Assembly (NCBI GenBank): GCA_030606485.1
Contig: JAUWGH010000004.1
Location: forward strand, 270,001-302,000
DNA length: 32,000 nt
From: Promethearchaeota archaeon
Lineage (GTDB): Archaea > Asgardarchaeota > Lokiarchaeia > Sigyniarchaeales > SOKP01
Reading direction: 5' to 3'
The notes under the pieces were generated by a model that ran no database searches, was not told the DNA's origin, and was given only the letters and a program-made list of their open reading frames with translations. This document shows positions 5,370 through 25,460 of this stretch, one piece after another; the first letter of the stretch is position 1, and each line of letters begins with the position of its first letter. The position numbers and the translations under genes were made by a program.

Positions 5370-5873
5370 ATGAGTAGTAGAGAGAAGCAATTTCCTTACA
5401 AGTCTATATTGGTCGTTTGTAGCGTTAATACCGCGAGGAGTCCAATGGCAGTAGAGTTTTTAAAGAAAATGCTTGCAGATAATGGCATATATAATGTCGA
5501 TGTCTATTCAGGTGGGATATCATCTCATGCGAGAGACGGAATGTTGATAAGTCTAGATTCTAAATTAGTTATGAGCGAAGTGGGGATAAATTTACCTGAT
5601 GATTATTTATCTATTGATTTAAAGAAACACCGAGATTTAATTAAAAAAGCAGATTTGATTTTAACTTTAACTGAGCAGCATAAAAAAGAAATTAAAAATT
5701 TTGATGAATCAAAAGGTAAGGAGATTCTAACATTAAAAGAAATTGCTGAGGAGACGGGAGATATTGGAGACCCATCGATGAAGGAATTGGGCGGTTTTAG
5801 GCAGGCAAGAGATGAAATTAAAATATGTTTAGAAAAAGGGTTAAAAAAAATTTTAATTTTATTCAATATTTAA
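5370..5873 (+). CDS. Low-molecular-weight protein tyrosine phosphatase / arsenate reductase family
   Basis: P-loop VVCSVNTARSPMA (Cx5R) and the downstream IGDP acid motif. Confidence 0.85.
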   Translation: MSSREKQFPYKSILVVCSVNTARSPMAVEFLKKMLADNGIYNVDVYSGGISSHARDGMLISLDSKLVMSEVGINLPDDYLSIDLKKHRDLIKKADLILTLTEQHKKEIKNFDESKGKEILTLKEIAEETGDIGDPSMKELGGFRQARDEIKICLEKGLKKILILFNI

Positions 5874-6011
5874 TTGTGCATTTCCACCATTGTCGCTAAT
5901 ATCAATAACATCATATATTGTAGATGTCTCATCTAAAAAAACAATTATATATTTTTCTGGATCAAACCTTTCCAATATTTTAATTAATTTTTTTATTTTT
6001 ATATTTACCAC
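5859..6011 (-). CDS. Possible small hypothetical protein (~50 aa), below the ORF-track cutoff
   Basis: Hand translation from GTG: VVNIKIKKLIKILERFDPEKYIIVFLDETSTIYDVIDISDNGGNAQLNIE*. The start is uncertain. Confidence 0.3.
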   Translation of the reverse strand: MVNIKIKKLIKILERFDPEKYIIVFLDETSTIYDVIDISDNGGNAQLNIE

Positions 6012-6089
6012 CTTTAATTTTAATTTTATTCATTCTTATATTATTTATTTCTTATAAATTATTCCCGGAACTTAATCTAATTACAATGT

Positions 6090-6166
6090 TATAAACACAT
6101 CTCTTTTAAAAATTTATTCCGAAAACGTTTACTATGAATATATATTAGAGAAATATAAAGGAAAAA
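6090..6166 (+). repeat. 77-bp dispersed repeat, copy 1
   Basis: 65/77 identical, ungapped, to 11207-11283 (hand alignment). Confidence 0.9.
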
Positions 6167-6272
6167 TCAAAAAAAAATTTCAAATTAAAGGATTAAAAAA
6201 TTATGCATTTATTAAAAAATAAAATCAATTTTTTTTTTAATTTAAAAGAAAATAGTTTGAATATTTGAAAAT

Positions 6273-8951: not shown

Positions 8952-9184
8952 TGTCTAACATCACAAACTGTTTATTTTCCAGAAAACTTTTTTTTCCGAG
9001 AGATTTTTATTTTTTATTTTATCCAAATTAAATTGAATTTAAAGATCAATTTTCTTTCATTATAATTATTTCAACTTGAAATTTGGAGGTTTAAATTATC
9101 AAGCAAAAAAAGCGTATTTAATTATTTGTAAGCTTTCGTTGACACTTGCTTCAAATTTGAAGATTTATTTTAAAGATGATAAAA

Positions 9185-9604
9185 TCACGATTTTATCTCA
9201 TTTGAGGTTTTAAAAAGTGATTTAATCAGAAATTCCCTCTCTGCCTCATTCTGCTCTATTAGAAAATCATTATATTTACCGAGATCCAAATTATTCATGC
9301 TCGGATATTTTTGGAAAAACTGAATTACAATGCTCATAAAAGGATATTTTTTTAAAAATTCAATAACTCGTTTTATACCTTTTTCTGTAATGAGATAATA
9401 TATCTCTCTTGAAGTTTTAAAAATTAAAATATAACCTTTCTTATTAAGGATTTTGCACCGGCTATAAAAATTTTGCCTAATTCCGCCAATTCTTTTCCGT
9501 ATTTCACGATAAGAAACTAATCTTTTCCTTTCCTTTATAAGAAATTCCATCAGACATAAAAGAATTTCAGTAGAATACGGCACTAAAAAGTTCAATCTTT
9601 TCAC
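9185..9604 (-). CDS. Winged-helix (MarR/ArsR-like) DNA-binding protein, upstream of and co-oriented with the RT fusion
   Basis: SYREIRKRIG...KILNKKGYI...YYLITEKGIKRV wing motif. Confidence 0.65.
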   Translation of the reverse strand: MKRLNFLVPYSTEILLCLMEFLIKERKRLVSYREIRKRIGGIRQNFYSRCKILNKKGYILIFKTSREIYYLITEKGIKRVIEFLKKYPFMSIVIQFFQKYPSMNNLDLGKYNDFLIEQNEAEREFLIKSLFKTSNEIKS

Positions 9605-10338
9605 AAATTTTTTTATTTAACTTTCTAAAACAAATTATAAAAATTCAGATAAAATAACTTCTTCATTTCATAGATAAATTTTGTACCTATTTTTTTTCAT
9701 AAGGATCAAATTATTCTTCCAACAGGTTTATAATGTTAAATTTCAATAGTTTATACAATTCTACTAATTATAAGAATCAAAAAACTTCGACTAAAATTAA
9801 AATTAAAGCTTTATAAATTAAATTGAATTAAGAAAATTTTCGAGTAATATCGATATCCAGTATTTTTTATTCTAAAATTTATAATAAAAAATTCCTCTGG
9901 AATAAGTTGTTTGAATTCCGAGGAATTTAGAATTAAAAAAATTATTGTTAGATTTAAATATTTTTTATAGGGATTTAAGTAAATTTCAAAAAGTTAAAAA
10001 TATTGCTCAAAGGTTAGATTTCTCTTATCTTTTCAAAGAATTCAGTAAATAGAAAGAAATATTTAAATATTTGATATTTAATGTTAATTATAGATAAAAA
10101 AATTAAAATTAATGTAATTCATGTCTGAATTATTAAACAATAAAAGAGTTATAACTATTTATGCAGGTATTCAAAGTCAAAGATTAATTCACGCTTAAAT
10201 CGGAAAATGGTAAAGTAATTACGAAATCGTATTGAAATGGAAATAATAGAAGAGAAATTAATGAAAAAAAAGATTATAAAATGTTATATATGTCATTAAA
10301 AGTATAAATTAATAACAAAAGAAAAAGAGATTGGAAAT

Positions 10339-11103
10339 TTGTTTAAAACTATTGTTATAACTTCACCTAACCTTGACAAAGTAGAAAAAACGAATGTCTT
10401 ATACATAAATCAGGGTTTCTCTAAAATTAGTATTTATTACTTAAAATTTGAAGCTTATATTGATGAAGCAAAGGATTTCGAATGTATAGTTAGAATTATA
10501 GATGAACTCGAACATCAAAAGGTGATTGAAAGAAAAAGATTTTTCAATAAAGCTAGTTTTATATTTAAATGTAAAGATGCCACTAGCCTCGATATAAAAG
10601 ATGCAGATGTTAAAGATGTATGTTTAATTTTCATTGAATATGAATTTCCTAATTTTAAAAAATCTGATCCACCGATTTATCTTGATATTGAAATCATTGA
10701 ATTTGATTCCAAAATAATTGATTCTATGAACACAAAACCCCAAATAAAGGAAGATATTTATGATTTAGTTGATAAATATTTATCTGATGATTTTAAAGGA
10801 GCAATAAGTGAGATTGGGACTATAGGAGAATATATAGCTAGGGAATTTGCTGAAAAAATTCATAATAAAAAGGTTGGTAATTTTCGAACTGCTTTAAATA
10901 TATTAACAAATGAAAAGAAATTAGCGCGGAAAAAAATAAATTATTTCTACTTAGGTTCTTTATTATGGCCAATATATTATATTAGAAATCAAAAATCTCA
11001 CCCATATCATAAGATTGAATTTGATAAATCTACAGCCAAAATTGCTATGGAAAATTTATCTAGTATTTTAAATTATTTAGCCAAAACGAAATTCAAATTT
11101 TAA
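10339..11103 (+). CDS. Protein with C-terminal HEPN domain (putative RNase effector)
   Basis: C-terminal helical region GAISEIGTIGEYI...YYIRNQKSHP contains the Rx4H motif. N-terminal region is unassigned. Confidence 0.6.
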   Translation: MFKTIVITSPNLDKVEKTNVLYINQGFSKISIYYLKFEAYIDEAKDFECIVRIIDELEHQKVIERKRFFNKASFIFKCKDATSLDIKDADVKDVCLIFIEYEFPNFKKSDPPIYLDIEIIEFDSKIIDSMNTKPQIKEDIYDLVDKYLSDDFKGAISEIGTIGEYIAREFAEKIHNKKVGNFRTALNILTNEKKLARKKINYFYLGSLLWPIYYIRNQKSHPYHKIEFDKSTAKIAMENLSSILNYLAKTKFKF

Positions 11104-11206
11104 ATTTTGGATTGTATTCATATATTTCCTCATTTGGAGTGTTCGCTATAAAACTCTCTCAAACAAATAAATTTTACAAAATTAAATATAATTCTAAAGG
11201 CAAAAT

Positions 11207-11283
11207 TATAAACTCATCTCTTTTAAAAGTTTATACCGAAAGCGTTTATTAGTTATATATCTTAGGTATATATAAAGGAAAAA
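11207..11283 (+). repeat. 77-bp dispersed repeat, copy 2
   Basis: Matches copy 1 (65/77) and copy 3 (57/77) without gaps. Confidence 0.9.
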
Positions 11284-11322
11284 GATTGGTATCTTTTAAT
11301 AAAGTTATATAATTGAGGGATT

Positions 11323-12960
11323 GTGACTAAAAAATCTCAAGAACTAATTGAGACCCTATTTAAGGGTTTAATGGAATCTCTAATACAAATAGCTAATGGA
11401 GAATATGTTTTTAAAAATAATCAAACAATTTATTCCACGAGTCTTTCTTACAACGGTCCAAACTCAGATCTCCCATTAGAAGAAGAAATATTTCAATATT
11501 TTGAGAAGGAAATTGTATCAAAAATTCCTCATGCATTACTTTTAATTAAAGGAAATCTCTCTATTGAAGTCTCAATTAACAAAGAAATAAATAATAAATT
11601 AAAAAAGACCCAAAGTGCAAAACGAGAGTTAGACATTTATAAATCTTTTAAAACCATATTCTTTCCTACAATGAATGAATATCTTGTTAAGTTGGGAAAT
11701 TCTGAGCCAGAATGGATATATTTAGCAGAAAAAGATTGGAAAGTAGATACTAAAGATCAAAATAAAAAAAAATTTGAAAATGGAAATTATATAAAATATA
11801 TTAGAGGAAAGTCTTGGATTAGTATGGAGATTGAAGGAACAGCGATTTCTTTTTTAAAAGATGATATTGATTTCTTTTTTAATAATTTTAAATTTAAAAA
11901 TCCTATTTCTGTTGGGACAATTATCTTACCCCAGACAGACATTTCATTAGATGAGTTTAGGTCAAAATCAAAAACTAATAAAAAAAGTTATTATACGACT
12001 GATTTATATTCGTCCGAGCAAAAGAAAAGGTTTATTCAAAAATTACTTGAAAATTTTATTGAGTGGTATCCAAAATTTATTAATGACAATTTTCCTAGAA
12101 TTCGTAAATCTTTTAAATTATATCAGAATTTACCAGTAAAAATTATATTAAGTTTTGATAAACCATTTAAAGATGCTTATGAGCATCAAGATCTCTGGTT
12201 TTTTTGGGGTGTTGAGAAATTACCGAATGATTCCAAAAATATTGTAGAAATGGTTGAAGGGTATGATGCTAACTATGATGAGAATAAACATTTCATCGCA
12301 AGGTCAACTTCAACAAATTATTTGATTATTGATAATCAATATAATGCATTTCCATTTACATACAAATTTATAAGAGAAGAGTTAGAGGATATTTTAGAAG
12401 GATTTGAAAACGATTCAATATTTGATGAGATAAAACCTTTTCAATCGTCTCTAGAAGGTTGGATTCAAATAATATTAGATGCTGAGAAAAGAGGGGGAGA
12501 AGATTATAATATCGAGCTAAAATCAATACCAACTGAATCTAAGGAAGGAGATGGTTCAGGAAATGACATTTATGGGCATATAAATGGATTTGAAAACGAA
12601 GAGGGTGGCTATATATTTATTGGTGTCGATGAGAACAAAATTGGCAGAGAAAAAATTGTTGGATTAGAGGGATATCTCAAGAGTAAAAAAAAGACATTAG
12701 ATCAATTAGTACGAGAAATTAGACAAAAATGCGTTAATTATCTTAAAAACGACAATTATCGTATCCAAACTAGAACAGATGGTGGAATTTCTTTAATAAG
12801 AATTACTATTCGTTCAAACAAAGGTGGACTTAATTGGTTTTACACCAAAAAAGGATTACGCATAACATATGTTCGAAGAAATAGAGAAAAAATACCAATG
12901 CCAGAGCATGAAATTGAAGAGAGATTGAGTAAGAAATATAATAAGGCACTAATTAAATAA
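11323..12960 (+). CDS. Protein with C-terminal AlbA_2/Schlafen-like domain
   Basis: NIELKS...INGFENEEGGYIFIGVDE...IVGL pattern in the last ~170 aa. The N-terminal ~370 aa are unassigned. Confidence 0.7.
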   Translation: MTKKSQELIETLFKGLMESLIQIANGEYVFKNNQTIYSTSLSYNGPNSDLPLEEEIFQYFEKEIVSKIPHALLLIKGNLSIEVSINKEINNKLKKTQSAKRELDIYKSFKTIFFPTMNEYLVKLGNSEPEWIYLAEKDWKVDTKDQNKKKFENGNYIKYIRGKSWISMEIEGTAISFLKDDIDFFFNNFKFKNPISVGTIILPQTDISLDEFRSKSKTNKKSYYTTDLYSSEQKKRFIQKLLENFIEWYPKFINDNFPRIRKSFKLYQNLPVKIILSFDKPFKDAYEHQDLWFFWGVEKLPNDSKNIVEMVEGYDANYDENKHFIARSTSTNYLIIDNQYNAFPFTYKFIREELEDILEGFENDSIFDEIKPFQSSLEGWIQIILDAEKRGGEDYNIELKSIPTESKEGDGSGNDIYGHINGFENEEGGYIFIGVDENKIGREKIVGLEGYLKSKKKTLDQLVREIRQKCVNYLKNDNYRIQTRTDGGISLIRITIRSNKGGLNWFYTKKGLRITYVRRNREKIPMPEHEIEERLSKKYNKALIK

Positions 12961-13320
12961 AGTTTTTTTTTAATTTATTTTATGTATCGTATCAATTTTA
13001 GAAATAAGAGACTCTGCATAATTGGATTCCTACGTAACATCAGTTGGCAACCGCTTTAATTAATTCAACTCTTTTTTTAGGTATTGCCTTAAATAATCGA
13101 TGCTCCCTTAAATTCGGAAAAAAAATTTTCCCTCCGTTTAAAATATCGAAATTGGTAAAAAATATTTTATTTGATTAATCTAAAAAGAGTTGTCCATCTT
13201 TTTCTAGCCTTTTATTAACATATCTTAGTGTATCAGAATTTTAATTTCTGGATTTTTTTATTTATGTATTTATTATTTTATTCAATTTAATTGAATTATA
13301 TAATCGTTATTGTATTAATT

Positions 13321-14412
13321 TTAATCTCGATAATATTGATTGCATCTATAACATCTTAGATAATTTTGATGAAGTTGCATTTCTTGTCTGCAATCCACAC
13401 AAAAATTCTTAAGTTTTGCCATAAATCCTACAAAACAAAAATAACACATTTTATATTTTGATGAAATTGGTATTCCACAATCAATACATTGTTTTGAGAA
13501 TTCTCGTTCTTCCCCTAAAATATTAATATTTTTAATAAGATATGTAAGTCCATTATCAAACGAATTTTCTAGAAATTGAATGATTTTACTATGGTTCATT
13601 TTTTTGTGAACCTTCCCTTTTTCAATAATATTGAGAGTGTAGAGAATAAATCTATTCCGAAGGTTCATATATTTATAAGGGTTGTTGACATACTCTTTTC
13701 GTCTTTTTGGAAAAACAGGTTTGAATTTTCTCTTTTGCCTGAAATGAAATACTTCATTGAGAAAATCCAAGAACTCTTTATCTATTTTATTTTGTTCGCA
13801 TAATTCTAAGATTTTTTCATAAATTTTAGTTAAGGTAGTCTTCTTATATTCTTTTTGAAATAGCACCACTAAATAATATGAAAATTTGAATATCGCTTTT
13901 GAAAATATCATTTCTGCACTTGGTATATCGTTTCCATTAATCTCTATTCTCAAACTCTTATTCAAATAATAGAAGGCTCTTCTCAACAGATCATCGTAGT
14001 CGTCGTCTTTATAAGTAACATCTAGTAATTTATTACGGAAATCTTTGCCAAAGATAATTTTAGAATTGTATTTAAGATCAATAATAGCCCATTTATAGTT
14101 TGAAAAGGAATATTTCTTAAACTCTTTCTCATTAGAAAGAGCCGAGAATAAATTGTAAATAATTGAAATTTTTTTGTCTTCGAATATTTTCTCTTCAAAA
14201 CGCGCATTACTGTATTCCAAGGATTTAAAATTTAGTGCTTCTTGATCAAATGTTTTCACGAACACAAGAACATCGATATCATTTGGTTTAAAGTTATTAG
14301 TATCTTCATGAAAATATGAGCCAATTCCAAATATACTTACTAAATTTTCCTTCAGTTTATCTTTCACATAAAGGAAGACATCATATAACAACGAATCCTC
14401 TGTTTTTATCAT
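13321..14412 (-). CDS. Pol-beta-type nucleotidyltransferase with helical (HEPN-like) domain and C-terminal double Zn ribbon
   Basis: GIGSYF...NDIDVLVF (GS...DxD), a helical bundle LLRRAFYYL...KAIFKFSYYL, then CIDC..CYFC and CVDC..CYRC. Confidence 0.7.
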   Translation of the reverse strand: MIKTEDSLLYDVFLYVKDKLKENLVSIFGIGSYFHEDTNNFKPNDIDVLVFVKTFDQEALNFKSLEYSNARFEEKIFEDKKISIIYNLFSALSNEKEFKKYSFSNYKWAIIDLKYNSKIIFGKDFRNKLLDVTYKDDDYDDLLRRAFYYLNKSLRIEINGNDIPSAEMIFSKAIFKFSYYLVVLFQKEYKKTTLTKIYEKILELCEQNKIDKEFLDFLNEVFHFRQKRKFKPVFPKRRKEYVNNPYKYMNLRNRFILYTLNIIEKGKVHKKMNHSKIIQFLENSFDNGLTYLIKNINILGEEREFSKQCIDCGIPISSKYKMCYFCFVGFMAKLKNFCVDCRQEMQLHQNYLRCYRCNQYYRD

Positions 14413-14566
14413 TGAATTTAGATTTTTTTGAGAAATTCTGATCAGCCTTTTATTTTCAATTCAGAAATATACGGACGCATAATATGAAAATTGCGTGGAG
14501 TTATTTTATTAAAGTAAAAAAAGCCAACTATTTAAAGCTTTGTATATAAATAGTTCATTAAATTTT

Positions 14567-14600
14567 AATAATAATAATTATAATTATAATTATTATTATT
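14567..14600. repeat. Perfect 34-bp AT-only palindrome
   Basis: AATAATAATAATTATAATTATAATTATTATTATT equals its own reverse complement (checked by hand). Confidence 0.85.
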
Positions 14601-14821
14601 TTATTATTAGTATAAATAAATGAAAGCTTAAACGTTATATCTTCTTGATTATAAAGTTCTCATGCAATTGAATTAAAATTCAAAATATGCTTTAGCCTAT
14701 ACATTTTTTTATCATCAGAATTTATATAATCAAAAAACTCACTATTCTTACTATCCATCTTCATCTTATAGAAATAAAATATTTTTTCTTGAAATCATAG
14801 AACTTTTTAAAATTGTAATTA

Positions 14822-14898
14822 TACAAACTCATCATATTTAAAAGTTAATTTTCAAAGCGAATGATAAGTATAGATTTTTAGTAAATATAAAGGAAAAA
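14822..14898 (+). repeat. 77-bp dispersed repeat, copy 3 (more diverged)
   Basis: 57/77 ungapped identity to copy 2. Conserves AAACTCATC, TTTAAAAGTT, AAAGCG and ATATAAAGGAAAAA. Confidence 0.8.
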
Positions 14899-14952
14899 TG
14901 ATATTGGTACTTGTATAGCATTAAATTGTAATTTTAAAATTTAGATAAGGCG

Positions 14953-16551
14953 ATAAAAATAAGGTCAAGAAAAAATTTTACAGGAGATCTTCTAGATTAC
15001 GACTGGTTAAAAAAAAAAAATACCAGGGTACGAGATTCAGATGGTCTTTTAATAGTTAAATGGTTTTTAAAAATTAAAAAACCCGATTTTAAAACTTTAA
15101 ACTTATGGATATTACAAGAGGCTGAAGAACTTAGAAAAAAGAGAGAAAAATCAAAAGATAAAATAAATAAAAATTTTGAAGAAAAAATTAAGATAAAAGA
15201 GTGGGAAAAGTTTTGTGAAAATTCTCAAATAAAAGAGGAAATTTGTAAACGTTTAAGATATGACTATAGCCCATCAGTAGAATTTGAATCAAATAAATTA
15301 AATCAATCTATAAAAATATCAAGATATGAATTAATAAAAAAAATACGAGACGAATTATCTTCGAAATATAATTATAATGATTATGACGATCTAGGATTAT
15401 ATGGGGGTTTATATTATCGAACACTTGGATTATCAAGGGCGTTAGGAGGTAATTATATTGCAGATGATGTAAAATCCCATCTTAATGTTAGAGTCATGTG
15501 GCTTTTAAAGCAATTTATTCTAAAGAATGCAATAGATACAAATACTCAAAAATATGCCTTAATTCGAGGTTTAATGCAAGATATTATACTCGCTCAATCA
15601 TGTTTAATTAGATTAAGGGCAGGATTAAATGTATTTCATGTAATATCTGTTCTTGGATGGGAAATTTTTAATTTCGATGGATTATGTCTTTACTTTGAAA
15701 CATTGACAAATACTATAATTGTAAGTATAAGATCATTTATAGATAAACTATGGAGGATGACACACAATTTTTTTTTAAATAAAGACAAAAAAATTACAGC
15801 TACAATTCAAAATGAAATACCCAACTGCAATAAATTTTCAATTACGAGTCTTGAGCGAGTTTATTCTATAATATCTACATTACATAACGTTCATAAAATT
15901 TCCCCTTATCAAAGAGATAGACATAATTTTGGATTAATGTTTGATTTTACTAATGCAGATACATTATTTCTAATTAATGAATTAAGAAACAATTATATTC
16001 ATGGTGAACCTAGTCCAAATATATCTGGCGTTATTAGACGAGATTATATTACTAGCGAGGAAACTCCTAAGAGAAGCAGTAGATATGATATATATATTTC
16101 CACAACTCCATTAATTAAAATTAAGAATTTGGATAATAGCGGATATAAAGATTTTAGAAAATTTTTAGAAAAACAAGGGTTGGATTTATCTAAGCTTGAT
16201 TATTGGGATGTTTTGGAAAAGCGTATATTATGGCGTGCTCCCCCTGAGATTCAAGATACAATCAAATTTGATCATTTTCCAGATCTTTATTCATCTTCCA
16301 TTCCTTTGGTTGTTAAAGAGATTACACATATAGAAAGAGAAGAAAAAGGAAATATGGAAGTCATACAATATTTTGAGCATGATAAAAAAATCCTAGAATG
16401 TATGATTACACAATTAAAAAGTGCAGAAATTTCTGGTTATTATAAAATTTCTCTTTATAATTTAAGTGATTGTATGTGGTCTTTGTTTGATACCTTAAAG
16501 ACATTGTTGAAAGTCTTTCTAATGAAAAAATTATATAATAAAGAATTTTGA
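14953..16551 (+). CDS. HEPN-domain protein (Cthe_2314-like); the real ORF probably extends ~180 codons upstream of the first ATG (15496)
   Basis: The frame is stop-free from 14938. It contains FETL...SIRSFIDKL and ELRNNYIH (Rx4H). The ATA at 14953 is a candidate non-canonical start. Confidence 0.6.
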   Translation: MKIRSRKNFTGDLLDYDWLKKKNTRVRDSDGLLIVKWFLKIKKPDFKTLNLWILQEAEELRKKREKSKDKINKNFEEKIKIKEWEKFCENSQIKEEICKRLRYDYSPSVEFESNKLNQSIKISRYELIKKIRDELSSKYNYNDYDDLGLYGGLYYRTLGLSRALGGNYIADDVKSHLNVRVMWLLKQFILKNAIDTNTQKYALIRGLMQDIILAQSCLIRLRAGLNVFHVISVLGWEIFNFDGLCLYFETLTNTIIVSIRSFIDKLWRMTHNFFLNKDKKITATIQNEIPNCNKFSITSLERVYSIISTLHNVHKISPYQRDRHNFGLMFDFTNADTLFLINELRNNYIHGEPSPNISGVIRRDYITSEETPKRSSRYDIYISTTPLIKIKNLDNSGYKDFRKFLEKQGLDLSKLDYWDVLEKRILWRAPPEIQDTIKFDHFPDLYSSSIPLVVKEITHIEREEKGNMEVIQYFEHDKKILECMITQLKSAEISGYYKISLYNLSDCMWSLFDTLKTLLKVFLMKKLYNKEF

Positions 16552-16695
16552 ATTTTCTCTATAAAAACCTCAATTTCTATTTTAAAAAATCATTTTTCAA
16601 ATTATAGAAAATTTCTTCAGGAAATTTTTTCAAATTATCATAAGAATTATTTAGTTTCTAGTTGTGATAGATACAAAATATTATTTGAAAAACAG

Positions 16696-16743
16696 GAAAT
16701 TCAAGGACTTTTTATAAATAAATTAAGTAAGGTGATAATGTAA
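16696..16743 (+). promoter_or_regulatory. Conserved upstream/TATA block of ATPase copy 1
   Basis: TTCAAGGACTT(TT)TATAAATAA.TTAAGTAA.G.GATAATGTAA is shared with 26615-26661. Confidence 0.55.
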
Positions 16744-16798
16744 TAAGAGGATATAATAAGGTTAAATAACAGTTAAATAAACGCAAAAAATAGGGCAT

Positions 16799-18415
16799 AT
16801 GACTAAATATAAAAAATACACTGAAATAAAAAAGAGCGAAGAATATGATATAATCGATTTACCAAGCCCTTCTAGGAGAGATTCACGAAGAGGAACGATT
16901 AAAATTGGTAAATCTTTAGTAGTAAAAAAATCATTATTATTAAAAAGGCCTCGGTATAAAAAGAAACATAAGTTTTATCTAAGTGTAGATGATCTTCACA
17001 GACATGTTTTCATTAGCGGTTTAACGGGAGTAGGAAAGACTAACTTCGTTAAGAATTTTTTGTTGGAATTTAAAAAAAAATTTGATGTAACGTTTCTTAT
17101 TGTTCAAATTAAGAATGATTTCGACTTTATTAGGGATTATTTTAAAGATCTTGAAATATTTTCTCCTGGCGAGAATTTTTCCATTGATATTTTTAATCCC
17201 GGTAAAATTGATCCCTTAATACATGCTGAAAGAATATTTGAGATGTTAAAAAATAGCAGATTAATTGATTCTTCAAGTGAGTTTTCCCCCCAAATGGAGA
17301 AAGTTCTTGTGGATGTTATAACAGAAGTCTGTAGAAGTAAAGGTCTAAAAAATTGGCAAAAATTTTACGAGATTTGTAATGAATATTTTAAGAACCATAG
17401 AAATGAGATTCCGAAATTGGACCAAACTTTTATTAGTGTAAAAAATAGAATTCGTAGGATGTCAGAAGGGCCATTAAAAAAAGCATTAAGCAATGAAAAT
17501 TTAATACCGATTGGCAAAATCTTAAATAGTAATAGTATTTTGAATTTAAGCTCAATTGTTCGCCTTGGGGGGGATAAAGAAGATGTTTATTTCTTTTTGA
17601 TGTTAGTTTTAAAGAATATTTGGGACTATAACATTTCTGCAGGCATTTCTAATAGGTTAAAGCATCTTACAATTGTCGATGATGCAACGTATTTTATGCC
17701 AAGAGAAAGTGCATCGAATGATAAGATTAGCACATATCTTGAAGATATTGCATTGCTACAGAGAGGTACGGGTGAAAGTTTGATCACTATTGCTACAAGA
17801 CCTGATATTAGCGAAAATATTTTAGCTAATTCAGGTGTAGTTATCGGTTTTGAAACACATTTTAAGAAACATAATTTTGCTGAACTATTAAATTTACCTG
17901 AAGAGAAGTATATGTATCTTTCCTTATTAGAGAAGGGACAATGTATTATTAGAACACCCTCTATTAAAATACCCTTTCTTTTAAATATTCCTTGGATTAA
18001 AGATTCTAACAAATTGAAAAAAAAAACGCCTGTGACTCCAAAATTGAGAAGAATCAATAAAAAAATTAAAATGAAACACCTTAATTTTCGACTCGATTTT
18101 ACTCGAAATTGCTTTCGTTCAGGGGACTATTCCAGTTGTTATTTTATTTGTTTAGAAATAATTGACTATATTGTTGATCAACTTGTATATCGATTAAATT
18201 ATGAATTTGGAGGTGTAGAAAAACTTGTTTTTGACATTGAACAAAACAATTTTTCGGATCGCATCAAAATTTATCCTGAGCTAAAAATAATTTCAAACAA
18301 TATTAATAATATTGAACAAAAAGAATTAATTTCTCGCAGTGACATTTTAGAATTATTTGAACAAATTTGCAGTATCTTCAGTAAATATAATTATGTTATA
18401 TTTAACACTCTTTAA
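16799..18415 (+). CDS. HerA/FtsK-superfamily (DUF87-like) ATPase, copy 1
   Basis: Walker A HVFISGLTGVGKT and Walker B LTIVDD (deviant DDAT). Ends in a ~110-aa helical C-terminal domain. Confidence 0.75.
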   Translation: MTKYKKYTEIKKSEEYDIIDLPSPSRRDSRRGTIKIGKSLVVKKSLLLKRPRYKKKHKFYLSVDDLHRHVFISGLTGVGKTNFVKNFLLEFKKKFDVTFLIVQIKNDFDFIRDYFKDLEIFSPGENFSIDIFNPGKIDPLIHAERIFEMLKNSRLIDSSSEFSPQMEKVLVDVITEVCRSKGLKNWQKFYEICNEYFKNHRNEIPKLDQTFISVKNRIRRMSEGPLKKALSNENLIPIGKILNSNSILNLSSIVRLGGDKEDVYFFLMLVLKNIWDYNISAGISNRLKHLTIVDDATYFMPRESASNDKISTYLEDIALLQRGTGESLITIATRPDISENILANSGVVIGFETHFKKHNFAELLNLPEEKYMYLSLLEKGQCIIRTPSIKIPFLLNIPWIKDSNKLKKKTPVTPKLRRINKKIKMKHLNFRLDFTRNCFRSGDYSSCYFICLEIIDYIVDQLVYRLNYEFGGVEKLVFDIEQNNFSDRIKIYPELKIISNNINNIEQKELISRSDILELFEQICSIFSKYNYVIFNTL

Positions 18416-18572
18416 AATCTAATTATTTTTATAAAGATTAGAATCATTCGGCGTCCTTCAAACTTGAGTTATTTTTTGAATTAAAAGATATAAAAATGTA
18501 AAAAATGTTAAAATACTATTTAATAAAAATTTCAAAATACAAATAAACAACAAGATTTAGGGTTATAGAAAT

Positions 18573-18632
18573 ATGAGAAAACAAGTAATTGGGGGATATT
18601 GGAAGATTTACTGGTTCAGTTCTATTATATAA
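18573..18632 (+). pseudogene. tpiA: 5' stub of a triosephosphate isomerase gene
   Basis: MRKQVIGGYWK versus MRKQVIGGNWK of tpiA at 25598; 29/35 nt identical. Homology is then lost and a stop follows at codon 20. Confidence 0.75.
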
Positions 18633-18724
18633 GGTTACTAGGGGTTCGAAAATTTATAAGCTTGTGTTGTTTCCCTAGTATTTATTAATTTTGAAAAGTA
18701 TAGTAAAAAAACTCTCAGACAATC

Positions 18725-19813
18725 TTAATTTATTTTTTTATTTGTTGATCTTAAACGTCGAATAGTTATATTATTTATTGTTAATGATAATGTTTTTTGC
18801 CTTTCTATCCGTTCTTTAATTCTGGAATCATTTGATTCAATTTCTTTTTTAATAAAATGGTTTTGAAATTCAAGAGTTTGAATTTTTATTGCCTTTAAAA
18901 ATTCCCATCCTACAAAATTCATTTGACTCTGTGGTATCCACAAATCTACTTTTTTGGAAGCGTATACTTTTAAATACCCATTATGGTAAAAAAAGATTTT
19001 CCCAATTCCAATCCCTAATGAATTTAGATGGAATATATTCCTAATATAAGGTTTATCAAACAAATCTGGTCTATAATTAAATAACGAATTTAAACCAAAA
19101 ATGATTGGTTGATAAATCTCAGTACAATTCCTATCGAAGTCTATATCAATTAATGGGTAGGAAATTGCTTCACTTCCCTTTTCAAATAAAAACCCTGATT
19201 GTTGATCTGGAAATAACAATGTTTTCGAAGGATAAGGTATTCCCATACCTCTAGATAACAAAAAATAACTTGAAATATTAATAAATGCAAAATTATTCAC
19301 ACTTAAGGCAAAGTAAGTCGGTAAAAATTGAAAAGCGGGCATTTCAGTTCCCATTATATGTAATCGATTCGACCGTTTTAAACTTCTAAAAATCAACAAT
19401 AATCGATCTTTTATGTTAATACCTTGATTTATATAAAAATTTGGATTTATACCAAAAAAGTTCTTATACATATAGATACTTGCAAGCCAAAGACCGATTC
19501 TAATTTTATCAAACCAACTCAATAATACATAAAAATCAGTCGAGCTTAATTTATTTTCTGACAGTAAATTTTCTATTATATTCTTTGCTATTGATTCTAA
19601 ACGTGAATATCTATTATTACATTCTTCACATGAAGGAAATACGAACTTATCAAAACTGAATGATTTATTTATTAACCTCCCATCTTCATAAAATGGTCCA
19701 AAAATTGCCTCACGATTCGGATCTCCAGTTAATTAAATTAACCATCTTGGAATAACGTGTTCATTCGTTTTTTTTATTGGTGTTTGGCCACAAAAGATAC
19801 AAAATCTTTCCAT
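18725..19813 (-). pseudogene. HNH-type nuclease gene (362 codons) broken by one in-frame TAA at codon 27
   Basis: Hand translation MERFCIFCGQTPIKKTNEHVIPRWLI*LTGDPNREAIFG...FPSCEECNNRYSRLESIAK continues in frame into track ORF 18725..19522. TAA is at 19735-19733. Confidence 0.75.
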
Positions 19814-19819
19814 TTAATA

Positions 19820-21808
19820 TCAACTTTTTACATTTTGTCTTATTGAGGAAAAAAGCCAAGGGTCTAAACATTCTTTTATTTTATCTTTTTGCTGAGGTAA
19901 CAGATGTTTGGTAAAGCTATTAATATTATAAATATAGTTCTTATTAATTTTATTTTGAAAATTTTTAAAAAAACCTTCATCACAACTTGTTACGATTATG
20001 GGAATCTGATATTCTTTGCAATACTCTATTAAGAAATCAACGAGATTTTTTTTTATTATAGAATCAAGATGTAATTCTCCGTTTTCAATAATTAATGATA
20101 AGTTGAATCCAAGATTTTTTAAATAGATAAATAGACATAATCTAAAACTTATGTCGTATATTCTTTTTTCCATTCCGCTTAAACCTTCAAAATCAATCGA
20201 CTCTAACCTTGGAACAAGTCCTCTGCTTCCAAAATCTAAAACGCTTTCTCTTCCCGATATTTTTTCAATAAACTTGGTAAATTTCTTATTAAACTCAATA
20301 AAAAACTTAACTCGTTTATCGAGGTTATATTTATAGAGTTTTTCTTGAATTTCTTTTAATTTATCAGTGTGTTTTTTTACATCTTCTCTCTCTTGGGTTT
20401 TTATATTTATTATATCTTCATTGAAATTCGATTTTTTAACAACTAAATTTCTAAATTTTTTAATTTCAGAATTAACATTTCTTTTTTTTTCCTCTAAAAG
20501 TTCAATTTTTTTTCTAATTCTTCTACGCATATTATTGAATAATTTTTTTTTAACGTGCTCTGCTTTTAAAAACGATTCAATTCTCTTATCAATCTCTTGT
20601 AATTCTTTTTGCTTAGATTTAATTACATCCTCAATTAATTCCAACTTTTTAATTAATTCTTTCTTGTAAGTTTGAAAATTAACTATAGATTTCTTTTGTT
20701 TATTAATCACTTTCTCGCATTTAATACACTTATTCGACTTAAATAATTCATGAGCTTTTTTAGCACATACAGAACAGAGGATATCTTTAATATATTTTAT
20801 TTGCCATTCGTTTCTCCTCAAATTTTCATTTACTTTTATTAAATCATCTTGTATTATAACCTTAGATTCCCTTTTTCTGTCTATTTCTGCTGAAAGATCT
20901 CTCATGTTAGAGGTCATTCTTGAATATATTTCAAAAGAAGTGTTGTCCTCAACTAATTTATCATAATAGATGTTTCTACGAGAATATAGATACTCTAAAA
21001 TTTCATTGATTTTATTTTTTTTATTTTTTAATCCATTAATTTTATCTTGTAATTTCTTTATATCTGGAATATTTTCAATTTTTTCTTTTTCTGCAATTAA
21101 ATAATGAATAGAATCTTCTAAATTTCTTTTAATTGTGTTATCCTTTGAAATCATATCATTTATCCTTTCAATTAAAAGGTTAATAATAGGTTGTGCTAAT
21201 AATTGATTGAACAATTTAATTCTAAATTGATCACCATCTTCTCCTGAAACTTTATTTGATAAGAGAAAATTCTCTGGAGTCTCGCATAATATCATAATTT
21301 CAAAAACATTAGTAAACGTTTTAGTAGATTCAATCCCAAAAAGTTTTTTCTTTATAAAATACTCATTTTCGAAATAACTAATTTTACCCTCTGGATTAAT
21401 TCTTAATTTTGATTTACGATATTTAGATACTTCCCTGAATATATTGTAATCAACACCATCTTTTTCAGCTGTCAAATTTAATATCAAATCTCTATTTTCC
21501 GCGATATCTAAACTTTTTAGCCCTCTATCGTGTTTTCCTTTTAAAGTGAATTTTAATAAATCTACTATAATCGATTTTCCAGATGTGTTAGAGCCAATTA
21601 AAAGAGTCAATCCATTTGGATTGAATTTCAACTTTAGTTTCTGATTAAAAAGCCCATAATTTTTTATTGAAAATTCGAGAAGCTTTGGACATGTAAATTT
21701 ATCAGGTGCTCTTTTTATCACTAAGTCTGAATTGATAATATCAAGGCTGTCGTTATCATCTTTAAGTTCATTATTTAACCATTGTATTATATCATTTATT
21801 TGAGTCAT
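19820..21808 (-). CDS. Rad50/SMC-like ABC ATPase with long coiled coil and central Cys pairs (Zn-hook-like)
   Basis: Walker A GSNTSGKS, coiled coil with CSVC and CIKC, signature LSGMEK, deviant Walker B/D-loop IIENGELHLD. Confidence 0.8.
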   Translation of the reverse strand: MTQINDIIQWLNNELKDDNDSLDIINSDLVIKRAPDKFTCPKLLEFSIKNYGLFNQKLKLKFNPNGLTLLIGSNTSGKSIIVDLLKFTLKGKHDRGLKSLDIAENRDLILNLTAEKDGVDYNIFREVSKYRKSKLRINPEGKISYFENEYFIKKKLFGIESTKTFTNVFEIMILCETPENFLLSNKVSGEDGDQFRIKLFNQLLAQPIINLLIERINDMISKDNTIKRNLEDSIHYLIAEKEKIENIPDIKKLQDKINGLKNKKNKINEILEYLYSRRNIYYDKLVEDNTSFEIYSRMTSNMRDLSAEIDRKRESKVIIQDDLIKVNENLRRNEWQIKYIKDILCSVCAKKAHELFKSNKCIKCEKVINKQKKSIVNFQTYKKELIKKLELIEDVIKSKQKELQEIDKRIESFLKAEHVKKKLFNNMRRRIRKKIELLEEKKRNVNSEIKKFRNLVVKKSNFNEDIINIKTQEREDVKKHTDKLKEIQEKLYKYNLDKRVKFFIEFNKKFTKFIEKISGRESVLDFGSRGLVPRLESIDFEGLSGMEKRIYDISFRLCLFIYLKNLGFNLSLIIENGELHLDSIIKKNLVDFLIEYCKEYQIPIIVTSCDEGFFKNFQNKINKNYIYNINSFTKHLLPQQKDKIKECLDPWLFSSIRQNVKS

Positions 21809-21822
21809 AAATCATTTACCTA

Positions 21823-22269
21823 TTAATATCTTGAGAGAAGTGTATATTCCGGATATTTAGAATAAACTATATTAATTAATTCCTTAAGAGATAACCCCTC
21901 AAGGTTAGAGATTATATTTTTTATTTTATCTTGAGTTTTATTATTTAATGAATCCTTAATTTTAATAAATCCTTTATCAGTAATTGCGTAAATAATTGTT
22001 TTTTCATCTCTATCATAAAAACTATGGATAAATCCATTTTCTTCTAAGAATTTTAAATCTTCCTCTATTTCTTTTGAATATGGACCATAATGTTTAGGAT
22101 GGAAATTAAAATAAACATCAATACTCACTTCTTTTTCTAATAGAAACAGATATTTCATCAAGCGAGTTTTGCCTTTAATCTGCTTAAAGTTAAATATTAA
22201 TTGTAGGATAATATCTAACTGTTTGTTTCTAATCTTTTCCATATTTAAATCTTCTCCCTTAATTTTCAT
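21823..22269 (-). CDS. YwgA/DUF4065-like winged-helix protein
   Basis: GKTRLMKYLFLL...HYGPYSKEIEEDLKFLEENGFI...YAITDKG...IVYSKYPE. Confidence 0.65.
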   Translation of the reverse strand: MKIKGEDLNMEKIRNKQLDIILQLIFNFKQIKGKTRLMKYLFLLEKEVSIDVYFNFHPKHYGPYSKEIEEDLKFLEENGFIHSFYDRDEKTIIYAITDKGFIKIKDSLNNKTQDKIKNIISNLEGLSLKELINIVYSKYPEYTLLSRY

Positions 22270-22970
22270 TTTGTTATATTTTGAAACATTTTGAATAAAT
22301 CAGGATTATTAATTCTCAACCCTACTTCGCTATTTACTTCCCACATATTTTCATTAAAAATTATATAGATGTGATTTTTTTCTTTTCGTACATCTTTTAA
22401 AAACACAATTGATAAATTTGTATCATTTTTTTTAATAAATTTAAGTTCGGTCTTATTAAGATAATACTCTGATATCCTAGTTTTTATTATATTATCATAG
22501 ACTTCATTTTTTCCAACAAAAATGATAGACCCAGGTAAACATTTTTCTATATCTCGGCTCAATTCACCAATATCCTTAAATGTGAGTATAAAGGATACTT
22601 TATTTTTATCTTTTGCTTTTTCCCATTCAGCAATCAAGTCTGCTTTGTTGTTATCCAATAGTTCTAAATTAAATTTTGATATATCGTGAATTTCTTCAAG
22701 GATTTTATCTAAGTTAATTATGTCTAAATAGTTATCTTCTTGTAGAATTAAATCATTATTTTTTAATTGTTCAATTGGGGTACTCAAATCGTAATGTTTC
22801 CACAATTTTTCTTTAGGATAAAAAGTATTTAATTGCGAAATGAGATCTTTTCGCTTAATTTGTCGAAATTTCATAAGAACAACTAAAATTTTTGAAGAAT
22901 CTTGTGAAATATTATAATGATTTTTTAAGATTTCTCGAATACTTTCTTGTTTAGTAATTATATCGGACAT
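22266..22970 (-). CDS. TrmB-like winged-helix transcription regulator
   Basis: N-terminal wHTH (ISQDSSKILVVLMK...LKNNDLI) and C-terminal GLRINNPDLFKMF. Overlaps the next gene by 4 bp. Confidence 0.5.
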   Translation of the reverse strand: MSDIITKQESIREILKNHYNISQDSSKILVVLMKFRQIKRKDLISQLNTFYPKEKLWKHYDLSTPIEQLKNNDLILQEDNYLDIINLDKILEEIHDISKFNLELLDNNKADLIAEWEKAKDKNKVSFILTFKDIGELSRDIEKCLPGSIIFVGKNEVYDNIIKTRISEYYLNKTELKFIKKNDTNLSIVFLKDVRKEKNHIYIIFNENMWEVNSEVGLRINNPDLFKMFQNITK

Positions 22971-23256
22971 ATTAATGATTTTATCTTTTTTTCTTTTCTA
23001 TAGAATATTATAGTTAAATTTGATAATAAATATTGTTTTAAATGATTTCCAAGAAATTGAGTTCTAGATTTTTGAAATAACTAATTTGTTGATTTTCTAT
23101 CAAATTAATTTGTTATTAAAAAATTAGTTATTTATTTTAAAATCAGAAAAATGCTTATTTTTTACATCCAACTAATTCTTTTGATGAAAAAACTAGGAGA
23201 TAAGACATTTTAAGTTTAATTGTTTTCATTATATCATAAATTGGAGGTTCATTATA

Positions 23257-24144
23257 ATGTTTAACGAATCAAATGATGTTACTATAAGGGTTAGTAAGGA
23301 TTTAGAGAGAGAAGGCTATGTAGTTGCATTAAATAAGAAAAATCCCTACAAATTACCAGTCTTCCACTCTTCAGGAACTCAGAATTCGGTGCCTGATTTA
23401 TTTTTTTATATGAAGGGCTATGAAGACTTGGTCTTTAGAAAGCACAACAATTTAGGTCTTTATACTAACTTTATAGTATCTGGTTTCGTGGAATTGAAAA
23501 AAGGGGATAAATTAATCAACATATTTAGAGGAGTATCCCAACTATGCCAATATTGGAGCTATTATACTACCGATCAATGTAGATTCTTCTATAATGGGAA
23601 AGAGATTAAATATATCCAAGCTTTTTTACTCGGGACTTATTACTCATTTCAGGGAATGTTATATAGAGGAGACGAGATGCTAGAACCCCAGTCATTAACT
23701 TATATATCTGATGTCCATGATGTAGAGATTTATCCTTATACGCACGCGATACATTCTTCTCTCAGGGAAAGAAGACGCGAGAAATTGACCGAAATTAAAA
23801 CTAAAGGGTTAAAAATCTCTAAAAAGCAAGTTGATTTGGGCGTGGTTTTCGCAAAAGTTTCAAAATTTGGAGACTATATATCTGATGAGTACTGGGCGTG
23901 GCTCGGGAATCGTATGAAACCACTAAAGAAAAATGCCGAAGCTCCTTGCATTCAAGTAAAACTGAGAATAGTTTTTATAACAGATAAAGCAATTAAAGTT
24001 AATAACACGACGGAGGAATCTATTTGGATACCCAAATCGATATTAATGTGTGTTATACGGGAGGATGATATAGGCACAATAAAGAAGTTTGTTATTCCAC
24101 TATGGTTTTATTCGAAAAACCAATGGTTTTTCGGTTTAATTTGA
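23257..24144 (+). CDS. PD-(D/E)XK restriction-endonuclease-like protein
   Basis: VPDLFF...FVELKKG...GVSQLCQY pattern, plus a small C-terminal beta domain (TDKAIKV...IWIPKS). Confidence 0.6.
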   Translation: MFNESNDVTIRVSKDLEREGYVVALNKKNPYKLPVFHSSGTQNSVPDLFFYMKGYEDLVFRKHNNLGLYTNFIVSGFVELKKGDKLINIFRGVSQLCQYWSYYTTDQCRFFYNGKEIKYIQAFLLGTYYSFQGMLYRGDEMLEPQSLTYISDVHDVEIYPYTHAIHSSLRERRREKLTEIKTKGLKISKKQVDLGVVFAKVSKFGDYISDEYWAWLGNRMKPLKKNAEAPCIQVKLRIVFITDKAIKVNNTTEESIWIPKSILMCVIREDDIGTIKKFVIPLWFYSKNQWFFGLI

Positions 24145-24623
24145 AATTTCACTTAAAACTTCATTTATAAGAATAATTTTTCGCACTTTTTATAATTCTT
24201 TCTTTAAAAATTTCGCACGATTAGTATTAATTTCTTAAAAATTTCATATTGAATAATTTTATCTATTAAATAGCCGCTCCAAAAATCAAGTAGATTATAA
24301 TATTCCAAATATTTTAGATATATTGATTTGGAAGAATTATTGAGACAAATTGAAATTTGTATGTAAGGAAAATTAAATAGTATTTATATTTTTAAACTTG
24401 ATAATATGTTAAAAGAGATTGATAAATGGTTGGAAATGACTTCTAATGTGAAGCCCAGAAAGTCTCCATTATTTACTTCTGAAAAAAGAGATTTCATATA
24501 TCGAGTTTATAAAAAATATTTGATACAACGGATTTAATTGTCTTATAAAAAACCAATTTCTTATTTATTATAGAAAATAAATTCATTAAAGTTATTTTTA
24601 TTGTAAGTAAATATTATAATATT

Positions 24624-25460
24624 ATGAGTTTTGCCGATATTAATGGAATAAAGCTTTGTTATGAGATTTACGGCAGCGATAATAATATTCCAATAATATT
24701 AATTCATGGGTTTGGTGCAAAAAAAGAGATTTGGAACTCACAAGTGGGGGCGTTAAGTAAAAAGTTTAAAGTAGTTACGTTTGATATTCGTGGTTCTGGT
24801 AAATCCGACCGCCCAAATAAACCTTATACTATGGAGATGTTTGCAGATGATATAAAAGGTTTAATGGATTATCTACATCTCAAAAAAGTTCATTTAATTG
24901 GAAGATCTTTGGGTGGGATGATTGCTCAGCATTTTACCTTAAATTATCCTGAATGTGTAGATAAATTAGTGCTAATTACTACTAATCCGGGAATACCAGA
25001 TGAGCAAGGAGCCGAAATGGTTAAAGAATCCTATATTGAAGGTTTAAAACGACTTAAAGAAGATCCAGTGAAAGAATTTTGGCAAAAAGCTCGAGTATTA
25101 TATTATAAAGAATTTAGAAAACAAATGGAAGCTAATCCTAAGAAAAAATTTCATGGAATTTGGTCAGTAGAGGATCTTATAAGAGAAAGTACGATAGATC
25201 CACCAACTCCTCAAGATATTGAAAATCGAGCACATGCCATTGCGAAACATAATACATTAGAAAGATTGAGTGAAATTAAAAACAAAACTTTATTACTTGC
25301 AGCTTCTCACGATAGATTAACTCCTAGATCATCTATGGTTGAGATGCATAAAAGAATTCCAAATAGTACCTTAAAGATTATTGAAAAAGCAGGACATTTT
25401 ATGACATTATCAAGAGCTCCCGAAATAAATAAGATTATCATAGATTTTTTAGAAGATTAA
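24624..25460 (+). CDS. Alpha/beta hydrolase
   Basis: LIHGFG, FDIRGSGKSD, nucleophile elbow GRSLGG, HD acid and AGH histidine. Confidence 0.92.
   Translation: MSFADINGIKLCYEIYGSDNNIPIILIHGFGAKKEIWNSQVGALSKKFKVVTFDIRGSGKSDRPNKPYTMEMFADDIKGLMDYLHLKKVHLIGRSLGGMIAQHFTLNYPECVDKLVLITTNPGIPDEQGAEMVKESYIEGLKRLKEDPVKEFWQKARVLYYKEFRKQMEANPKKKFHGIWSVEDLIRESTIDPPTPQDIENRAHAIAKHNTLERLSEIKNKTLLLAASHDRLTPRSSMVEMHKRIPNSTLKIIEKAGHFMTLSRAPEINKIIIDFLED

Follow-up and report, generated by a model that had tools for sequence, protein, structure and literature searches.

A cassette of three tightly packed genes, here called A, B and C, was analyzed in a 32,000-nt stretch of Promethearchaeota DNA (the window, C2:270001-302000 of a host genome of 3.75 Mb in 13 contigs with ~27% G+C). 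We give an even chance to the reading that this cassette is a very rare Lamassu-like module, with a Rad50/LmuB-type sensor ATPase, located in a variable archaeal defence island. Gene C encodes a short ATP-binding cassette (ABC) ATPase with a coiled coil, gene A a TrmBL2/TrmB-like protein and gene B a small winged helix-turn-helix (wHTH) protein. A fourth gene, D, encoding an HNH nuclease, follows C, and a further gene, E, diverges from A.

A, B, C and D are minus-strand open reading frames (ORFs). A 4-bp overlap (22266-22269) joins A and B, spacers of 14 nt and 6 nt separate B from C and C from D, respectively, and 286 bp lie between A and E (Table 1). Because this layout and the motifs described below are facts of gene structure rather than a statistical pattern, no chance model was needed. 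The ORF coordinates bear out the original prediction, which had described a tight four-gene layout with this overlap and these gaps. Its domain calls (TrmB-like wHTH, YwgA-like wHTH, Rad50/structural maintenance of chromosomes (SMC)-type ATPase and HNH) also hold, as does its account of a compact ATPase with central CxxC pairs, no hinge and a deviant Walker B; gene E had been missed. Scans of the window with Rfam and for tRNAs gave no matches. A bacterial promoter and terminator scan returned fewer promoter-like sites than in shuffles, with models that are bacterial and not applicable to an archaeon.

Table 1. Coordinates of the genes, motifs and related loci (window positions unless another locus is named)
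Feature	Position	Strand	Description
Gene A	22266..22970	-	234 aa; TrmBL2/TrmB-like; first of conserved cassette
Gene B	21823..22269	-	148 aa; PadR-like wHTH + helical extension; cassette middle gene
Gene C	19820..21808	-	662 aa; short coiled-coil ABC ATPase, Rad50/LmuB type
Gene D	18725..19813	-	362 codons; HNH_5-like nuclease gene, pseudogene by nonsense codon
Gene E	23257..24144	+	295 aa; putative PD-(D/E)xK nuclease, candidate effector
Walker A of C	21572..21595	-	GSNTSGKS, aa 72-79; G77 and K78 invariant in family alignment
Coiled-coil apex of C	20717..20776	-	CxxC-x12-CxxC (C345, C348, C361, C364)
Degenerate Walker B of C	20081..20095	-	LIIEN, aa 572-576; Asp -> Glu, catalytic Glu -> Asn
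H-loop position of C	19979..19990	-	TSCD, aa 607-610; His -> Cys (opposite Rad50 VSHD)
In-frame TAA of D	19733..19735	-	Codon 27; inside HNH motif
Accessory island	5874..24623	.	~18.7 kb; flanking genes adjacent in sister genome G001
G140 C-family member	L116 1567-3879 (G140:C19)		651 aa, LIIET, double CxxC, Walker A first Gly -> Ala
Second LmuB-like operon	L111 6242-9686 (G000:C10:94241-97685)		274 aa, 245 aa, 629 aa ATPase

A conserved three-gene core around a degenerate ATPase

The family to which C belongs is extremely small. An exhaustive HMMER search of 1.84 billion representatives recovered four other members, and a distant one in genome G140 came from a profile search across 400 genomes of the phylum, giving six loci with the window included. 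The exhaustive search was needed because a word-indexed protein search and a genome contig scan with C returned only C itself, the family being too divergent for them. One member is full length and 30% identical to C (P0003), another shares 21-23% identity (P0006), and two are N-terminal fragments (P0005 and P0007). A search of 60 relatives, four of them congeneric genomes, detected no member. Proteins P0004, P0008 and P0009-P0012 were rejected as members, their likeness being limited to the head domain or the coiled coil. P0008, a 599-aa SMC-like ATPase (loci L008-L011), is translationally coupled to a 785-aa RecQ-type helicase-phosphoribosyltransferase fusion followed by a DprA/LDcluster4 protein, in what looks like a separate candidate defence operon.

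The gene order around the ATPase recurs despite this divergence. In L003 and L004, the ATPase is preceded by proteins of 238-243 and 143-147 aa, in the order and with the tight spacing of the window. The L003 proteins are 40% (A), 53% (B) and 29% (C) identical to their window counterparts, and the 4-bp overlap of A and B is present there as well; in L004, B is 32% identical, and the counterpart of A is significant for Pfam TrmB (37.3 bits, cut-off 25.6). Two short contigs, L006 and L007, preserve the C-terminal end of a B-like protein immediately before the ATPase. Given that the order is kept in the first two loci and the B-C adjacency in the other two, A-B-C is a conserved core, and a very rare one.

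Protein C matches Pfam AAA_23 (1.8e-10) and carries a family-specific N-terminal extension of ~40 aa. When the family profile was compared with the PDB, archaeal Rad50 from Pyrococcus furiosus was reached at 5e-12 with both the N and C lobes aligned, and on this alignment C is classed as a Rad50-type ATPase. Its signature motif reads LSGME (aa 543-547). The Walker B motifs of the four full-length members are LIIEN, LIIEN, LLLET and LIIET, and in the hidden Markov model (HMM) alignment E575-N576 of C stands opposite the D-E of the P. furiosus Rad50 motif (LILDE). In the same way, C609 is placed opposite the Rad50 H-loop His; the residue is Cys, Cys and Ser in three aligned full-length members, and the G140 protein, read by eye, also has no His. 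The motifs at the apex are CSVC (aa 345-348) and CIKC (aa 361-364), whose four cysteines are invariant in three full-length members and also present in the G140 protein. In a profile comparison, the apex weakly resembles the eL37 zinc ribbon (E about 0.04); it is probably an intramolecular C4 zinc knuckle or ribbon that replaces the hinge.

The degenerate ATP site is interpreted as a selected state rather than decay, because the substitutions and the apex cysteines are kept in members that are only 21-30% identical. This bears on the possibility that the whole locus is non-functional and in decay, with a dead ATPase and a broken nuclease persisting as remnants in a fast-turnover island. The degenerate site itself, the stop codon in D, a possible stop in A in another strain and the lack of any RNA record for the locus among the sequencing runs would suit such a remnant. 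However, the same substitutions recur across the family, the frames of A, B, C and E are intact, and synonymous changes exceed non-synonymous ones between strains, so that we consider decay very unlikely. The strain comparison derives from an independent sediment sample (run X2), in which a copy of C, B, A and E is found at 98-99% identity, with 16 synonymous and 11 non-synonymous differences from the window among the changes listed. In gene A of this copy, a TTA>TAA change at codon 191 (22399) and a 3-nt deletion (22484) are seen on one contig with a depth of 3.9, and either may be an error.

Partner proteins A and B

The AlphaFold2 model of A has a predicted local distance difference test (pLDDT) score of 68. 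Its top match in a Foldseek search of the PDB is TrmBL2 (5bpd; E 3e-7, prob 1.0, ~260 columns), and TrmB (3qph) follows at 2.7e-4. The modeled protein consists of an N-terminal wHTH, a long helix and a C-terminal alpha/beta domain that is weakly phospholipase D (PLD)-like, in which the HxK motif is not conserved. The window protein passes no Pfam model. A resembles clusters from Thorarchaeota and other archaea and is predicted to fold like TrmBL2.

Since TrmBL2 is an archaeal chromatin protein, its place at the top of the structural matches also favors a role outside defence, in which a TrmBL2-like protein and a small SMC-like clamp would compact, pair or segregate a mobile element or a chromosome region. 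The ATP site of C, which looks built for binding rather than turnover, and the housekeeping neighborhood of the G140 member are in keeping with such a DNA-maintenance or chromatin module. Nevertheless, the family is extremely sporadic, with five other members and none in the sister genomes, and restriction, abortive infection (Abi), reverse transcriptase (RT) and HerA genes surround it in three of four loci. Moreover, the genome already has SMC-sized ATPases of its own and a canonical Mre11-Rad50-HerA-NurA operon elsewhere (contig 10). We therefore see only a slim chance that the cassette serves chromosome maintenance.

The model of B is of higher confidence (pLDDT 89.6). Among solved structures, the DarG chain in the DarTG complex 7yk3 matches it best (Foldseek 8e-5, prob 1.0, TMq 0.66; VIA Z 12.0 over 132 of 148 aa), followed by PadR and MarR regulators at Z 9-10. 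In PADLOC, B matches PDC-M19A (2e-17), DarG (7.5e-9) and a type I S-subunit extension, and all three B proteins give a weak match to Pfam SocA_Panacea. The model thus points to one PadR-like wHTH that carries a helical extension of the DarG C-terminal/YwgA/Panacea type. No Lamassu LmuC chain was among the matches listed in the fold searches, and families missing from those listings may still match. The role of B does not follow from its fold, because the domain is promiscuous: 100 of 400 genomes in the phylum carry it, in most cases within ~320-aa proteins in other contexts. Such ~320-aa proteins, with the gene-B-type domain at the N-terminus (PDC-M19A 4e-19; for example, L093 1480-2427) and an unassigned C-terminal half, are present in 29 of 31 genomes of one family of the phylum.

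These matches give some weight to a toxin-antitoxin-like or abortive module, in which B would be an antitoxin-type adaptor that holds a toxic partner (a nearby nuclease such as E or D, or C itself) inactive until infection, and A would be only the operon repressor. Such a module would account for the DarG-type fold and sequence matches of B, the weak SocA_Panacea signature and the full TrmB-family regulator architecture of A. The nonsense codons in D in this strain, and possibly in A in X2, would be expected if the parts are costly. However, the promiscuity of the B-type domain weakens the analogy, and the conserved partner of B is an ATPase, not a nuclease. SMC-like ATPases are not known as toxins. 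On balance, an antitoxin role for B is clearly unlikely.

Gene D, putative nuclease gene E and the accessory island

Gene D, which is single-copy in the host genome, is interrupted by the stop codon that the original prediction had noted. The stop shares its frame with the rest of the gene, and everything downstream of it is intact. The corresponding column is mostly Glu in 19 homologues, which indicates a single GAA>TAA change. A sense reading of TAA was rejected; because B and D themselves end in TAA, the codon is a real stop in this genome. The 61x contig from X1, the probable source run, shows it too; the probable source sample is a cold-seep metagenome. The sequencing runs were read as contigs, in which minor alleles are invisible, and outside X1 the coverage of position 19735 is too thin to inform on other strains. 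A product restarted downstream of the stop would be without the catalytic core.

The family of D is large and widely distributed. There are 61 full-length homologues at 33-46% identity, with a family size of 350-375 aa, and carriers include at least 173 genomes of many bacterial and archaeal phyla, the nearest relative coming from a Promethearchaeia metagenome-assembled genome. The proteins combine an HNH_5-like core of the beta-beta-alpha-metal type (two CxxC pairs, a catalytic His and an Asn) with a C-terminal domain of ~260 aa of unknown fold. Across 20 sequences, C5/C8, E18-H19 and C62/C65-N66 of this core show no or almost no variation. The Pfam HNH_5 model (PF14279; gathering threshold 27.5 bits) is passed by one relative at 28.2 bits, and the window protein scores 14.2 on it; D matches no PADLOC model. 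Gene D thereby exposes a widespread, unannotated family of ~360-aa HNH proteins in bacteria and archaea.

The neighborhoods of this family set D apart from the cassette. None of 80 D-family loci (L012-L091) has an ORF resembling A, B or C, and the immediate neighbors, among them glmS, a TPR protein and a CAAX protease, show no clustering and no P-loops. D-family genes often start within a few bases of a preceding unrelated gene, even overlapping glmS by 8 nt in L027; because such gaps are typical of the family, the 6-nt spacer between C and D is not evidence of recruitment. In L004, the genes that follow the ATPase encode a DEDDh-type exonuclease, a protein of 80 aa and a small classical HNH; the L003 contig stops 168 nt beyond the ATPase, and this interval contains a convergent ORF. 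D is a broken copy of a widespread, usually solitary family, locally appended and outside the cassette core; the family could be a free-standing mobile HNH or a one-gene defence. The four-gene unit of the original prediction thus gives way to a three-gene core: the wHTH partners that it expected beside the ATPase do recur, whereas no other locus of the ATPase family contains D.

In an analogy with Wadjet (JetABCD)/MksBEFG, A would be kleisin-like, B KITE-like, C the SMC protein and D a nuclease cleaving DNA recognized by loop extrusion. The two systems share a gene order of small, small, SMC-like and nuclease genes, with wHTH folds in the small proteins, and the rough sizes and tight spacing echo jetA-jetB-jetC-jetD. 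However, C is hinge-less and half the length of JetC, and JetC models match it only at the P-loop (aa 42-85, E 0.0016), while the missing catalytic Glu and H-loop His argue against an ATP-driven motor. A has a TrmBL2 fold rather than that of a kleisin, and B contains one wHTH instead of the tandem of a KITE protein. D is an HNH protein with no Pfam or PADLOC match to Toprim, and the nuclease gene is not conserved with the ATPase. With kleisin, KITE, hinge and Toprim all absent, the cassette is not Wadjet-like; this comparison, also drawn in the original prediction, is largely refuted and retains hardly any credibility.

Gene E is a candidate partner or effector of the cassette. A counterpart with 41% identity is likewise divergent from A in L003, and a motif of P46-D47 and E79-x-K81, followed by a long C-terminal part, is invariant in three sequences. 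Leads from the protein atlas (PD-(D/E)xK, Hjc and HSDR_N) all score below 0.9, and the profiles of E and D show no relation. A 343-aa gene divergent from a solitary E homologue (L105) was considered as a relative of D, A or C and rejected by hhalign.

All five genes lie in an accessory island, which is delimited by the finding that in the sister genome G001 the low-molecular-weight phosphatase gene (window 5370-5873) adjoins the alpha/beta hydrolase gene (24624-25460), with tpiA next. At this position, which is a hotspot where defence genes recombine, genomes G002 and G003 have different content. The start-codon region and leader of tpiA recur as a 42-nt copy, about 80% identical, at 18573-18614, just outside D and 7 kb upstream of the real tpiA at 25598; this copy marks past recombination and is probably a scar left by an exchange of cassettes. 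The alpha/beta hydrolase was rejected as a Lamassu-type effector, as it is a core gene beside tpiA in the island-less sister genomes.

A defence context was found in all three loci that keep the A-B-C order: RT-CapR, Schlafen/AlbA_2 and HerA genes in the window, an MmeI-type restriction-modification gene and DUF4062 in L003, and BglII and HEPN_AbiV in L004. The defence setting proposed in the original prediction therefore stands. The RT gene of the window (6273-8951, minus strand) encodes 892 aa with a group-II-intron-type RT (RVT_N, RVT_1, GIIM), DUF4379 treble-clef zinc fingers, four CapR repeats and zinc ribbons; Rfam shows no intron RNA in the window. A 545-aa protein (11323-12960, plus strand) has the Schlafen/AlbA_2 domain at its C-terminus. 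The interval 15496-18415 (plus strand) encodes a 351-aa protein of unknown family and, after it, a 538-aa HerA/DUF87 ATPase; a second HerA-type gene lies outside the island at 26717-28432.

Lamassu and other known systems

Lamassu LmuACB, alternatively named DdmABC or ABC-3C, is among the commonest SMC-based immune systems, and its archaeal reach and the limits of its part list are poorly mapped. Its operon order is LmuA-LmuC-LmuB (10.1101/2025.04.02.646746; 10.1101/2025.03.14.643221). Short LmuB proteins have ~600 aa, zero to two CxxC motifs and a Walker B of the form hhhhD[Q/S/T/E] (10.1101/2025.04.02.646746). LmuC has helix-turn-helix (HTH)-like folds and binds DNA, and some Lamassu clades have no effector domain (10.1101/2025.04.02.646746; 10.1101/2025.03.14.643221); these effector-less clades keep the LmuA C-terminal domain (CTD) (10.1101/2025.04.02.646746). 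The archaeal hosts given are Euryarchaeota and Thaumarchaeota (10.1101/2025.04.02.646746).

Among the PADLOC models, LmuB is the best family for the relatives of C. P0003 and P0006 score 79 and 87 bits on PDLC03859 in nearly full-length matches, and the best other model reaches at most 53 bits. By hhalign, the C family is nearer to the LmuB-like ATPase of the host genome (96%, 262 columns) than to the Rad50 of that genome (78%, 62 columns). This LmuB-like ATPase belongs to a second operon (L111 in Table 1); it is the best LmuB-like protein of the genome (97 bits on PDLC03859) and has a canonical Walker B (IMDE) and a single CxxC. Neither of its two partners has a PADLOC match, and the operon is a probable unrecognized archaeal Lamassu. 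A third short LmuB-like ATPase, of 623 aa with one CxxC, lies 52 kb from the cassette (L113 3708-7698; G000:C2:341707-345697); upstream of it are genes for an IetA/TRIP13-like AAA protein of 239 aa and for a protein of 119 aa.

A mechanism can be proposed from these features. The retained Walker A and signature-like motif, together with the lost catalytic Glu and H-loop His, suggest that C binds ATP with little or no hydrolysis. A dimer of C would close its heads on ATP and hydrolyze it slowly or not at all, acting as a switch rather than a motor. In the LmuC position, B would bridge C to DNA, to a partner protein or to both, and A may be a third subunit that loads the complex on DNA, or an operon regulator. 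The effector, rather than being fused to A as in LmuA, would be supplied by separate and swappable neighboring nuclease genes, for which the candidates are E in the window and L003, the DEDDh exonuclease and small HNH in L004, and the appended D in the window. The gene structure, the motif states, the conserved order, the folds of A and B, the island and the independence of D are observed; complex formation, DNA sensing, nuclease licensing and an anti-virus function are what we infer for the cassette as a whole.

Several observations weigh against a Lamassu-like module. On the LmuB models, window C itself reaches only 36-39 bits (1e-9 to 1e-10; PDLC03859: 36 bits, 1e-9), a weak score. PDLC03859 has no curated cut-off and finds matches in 14 of 14 control genomes, for which reason the HMM result is a ranking, not an assignment. 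Neither A nor B matches LmuA, LmuC, MComp or CTD models in PADLOC or Pfam, for LmuC and MComp at E up to 1 and with a Pfam copy that holds the MComp models; because the partners in the other LmuB-like operon also match nothing, the LmuC and LmuA models may not reach archaeal forms. The G140 member is surrounded by housekeeping genes, with no A or B upstream; the protein upstream of it, a 109-aa CxxC..HxxxH zinc-finger protein, was rejected as a relative of B, no relation having been found. No enzymatic effector has been shown to belong to the A-B-C core. The best homologue of E (46% identity) is in a locus without A-B-C, and because E also occurs without the cassette, the link between the two may be no more than a shared island. 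Finally, a purely structural, non-sensor role of C could also explain why the catalytic Glu and the H-loop His are lost. A complex prediction for C and B gave a score of 0.00 without controls and counts neither for nor against.

Another interpretation of the same core is that A-B-C is not a drifted Lamassu but a separate, undescribed class of SMC-like immune sensor. A hydrolysis-dead Rad50-like clamp with an intramolecular zinc apex would then be read out by an antitoxin-type (DarG-C-terminal-like) adaptor and a chromatin-type TrmBL2 protein, and the complex would license whichever free-standing nuclease is adjacent, forming a modular sensor with a plug-in effector native to Asgard-type archaea. 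We regard this as doubtful, though worth keeping in view.

If the Lamassu-like reading is correct, Lamassu would be extended to this archaeal lineage, with two partner families never before linked to SMC-like ATPases (TrmBL2-like and DarG-C-terminal/YwgA-like) and with effectors as separate genes instead of domains fused to LmuA. In addition, C offers a natural experiment on the need for ATP hydrolysis in sensing, because the catalytic Glu and H-loop His are lost and yet the state is conserved. The rarity of the cassette, at six loci, limits its general importance.

The cassette fits no described system exactly, as the original prediction had stated, and shares individual parts with several. 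Septu (PtuA ATPase and PtuB HNH) also has an ABC-type ATPase gene adjoining an HNH gene; however, PtuA models match C at the P-loop only (E 0.0048), and D is unlinked to ATPases elsewhere. B has the DarG C-terminal fold and sequence signature in common with DarTG and SocA-Panacea, but the cassette has no macrodomain and no DarT, and the conserved neighbor of B is an SMC-like ATPase. A pairing of a DarG-C-terminal-type protein with such an ATPase was not found in the literature or libraries searched. A shares its wHTH, long helix and PLD-like C-terminal domain with TrmBL2 and TrmB, although the sequence similarity is marginal and A is translationally coupled to the cassette, whereas genes of the TrmB family are usually free-standing regulators or chromatin proteins. 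The head of C is closest to archaeal Rad50 among solved structures, and apex Cys motifs are likewise common to both. In contrast to Rad50-Mre11/SbcCD, the arms of C are far shorter, its CxxC-x12-CxxC lies in one chain instead of forming a single inter-chain hook, the locus has no Mre11/SbcD phosphoesterase and the catalytic residues are degenerate.

In architecture, the cassette agrees with short Lamassu. The differences lie first in the LmuA position, since A is TrmBL2-like and has neither an enzymatic N-terminal effector nor a recognized LmuA CTD (CTD1-12), and the candidate nucleases are separate genes. B fits LmuC in position, size and HTH-type fold but is of the DarG-C-terminal/YwgA type and matches no MC1-8 or LmuC model. 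In C, unlike LmuB, the Walker B begins with Glu instead of Asp and the H-loop His is lost, and the host phylum is outside the Euryarchaeota and Thaumarchaeota (10.1101/2025.04.02.646746). Nevertheless, both systems have three genes in the same orientation, of which the second encodes a small HTH-type protein and the third a coiled-coil ABC ATPase of ~600-660 aa. This ATPase has in both a Rad50-like head, two apex CxxC motifs, a non-acidic second Walker B residue and, in C, a canonical Walker A, and both systems are located in defence islands. The original prediction had proposed a new SMC-sensing system and had named an HMM assignment to Lamassu as evidence to the contrary; such an assignment is found in part, in that the ATPase family is nearest to LmuB and has the traits of short Lamassu (10.1101/2025.04.02.646746). 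A divergent variant of the Lamassu kind is therefore a better reading of the cassette than an entirely new SMC system.

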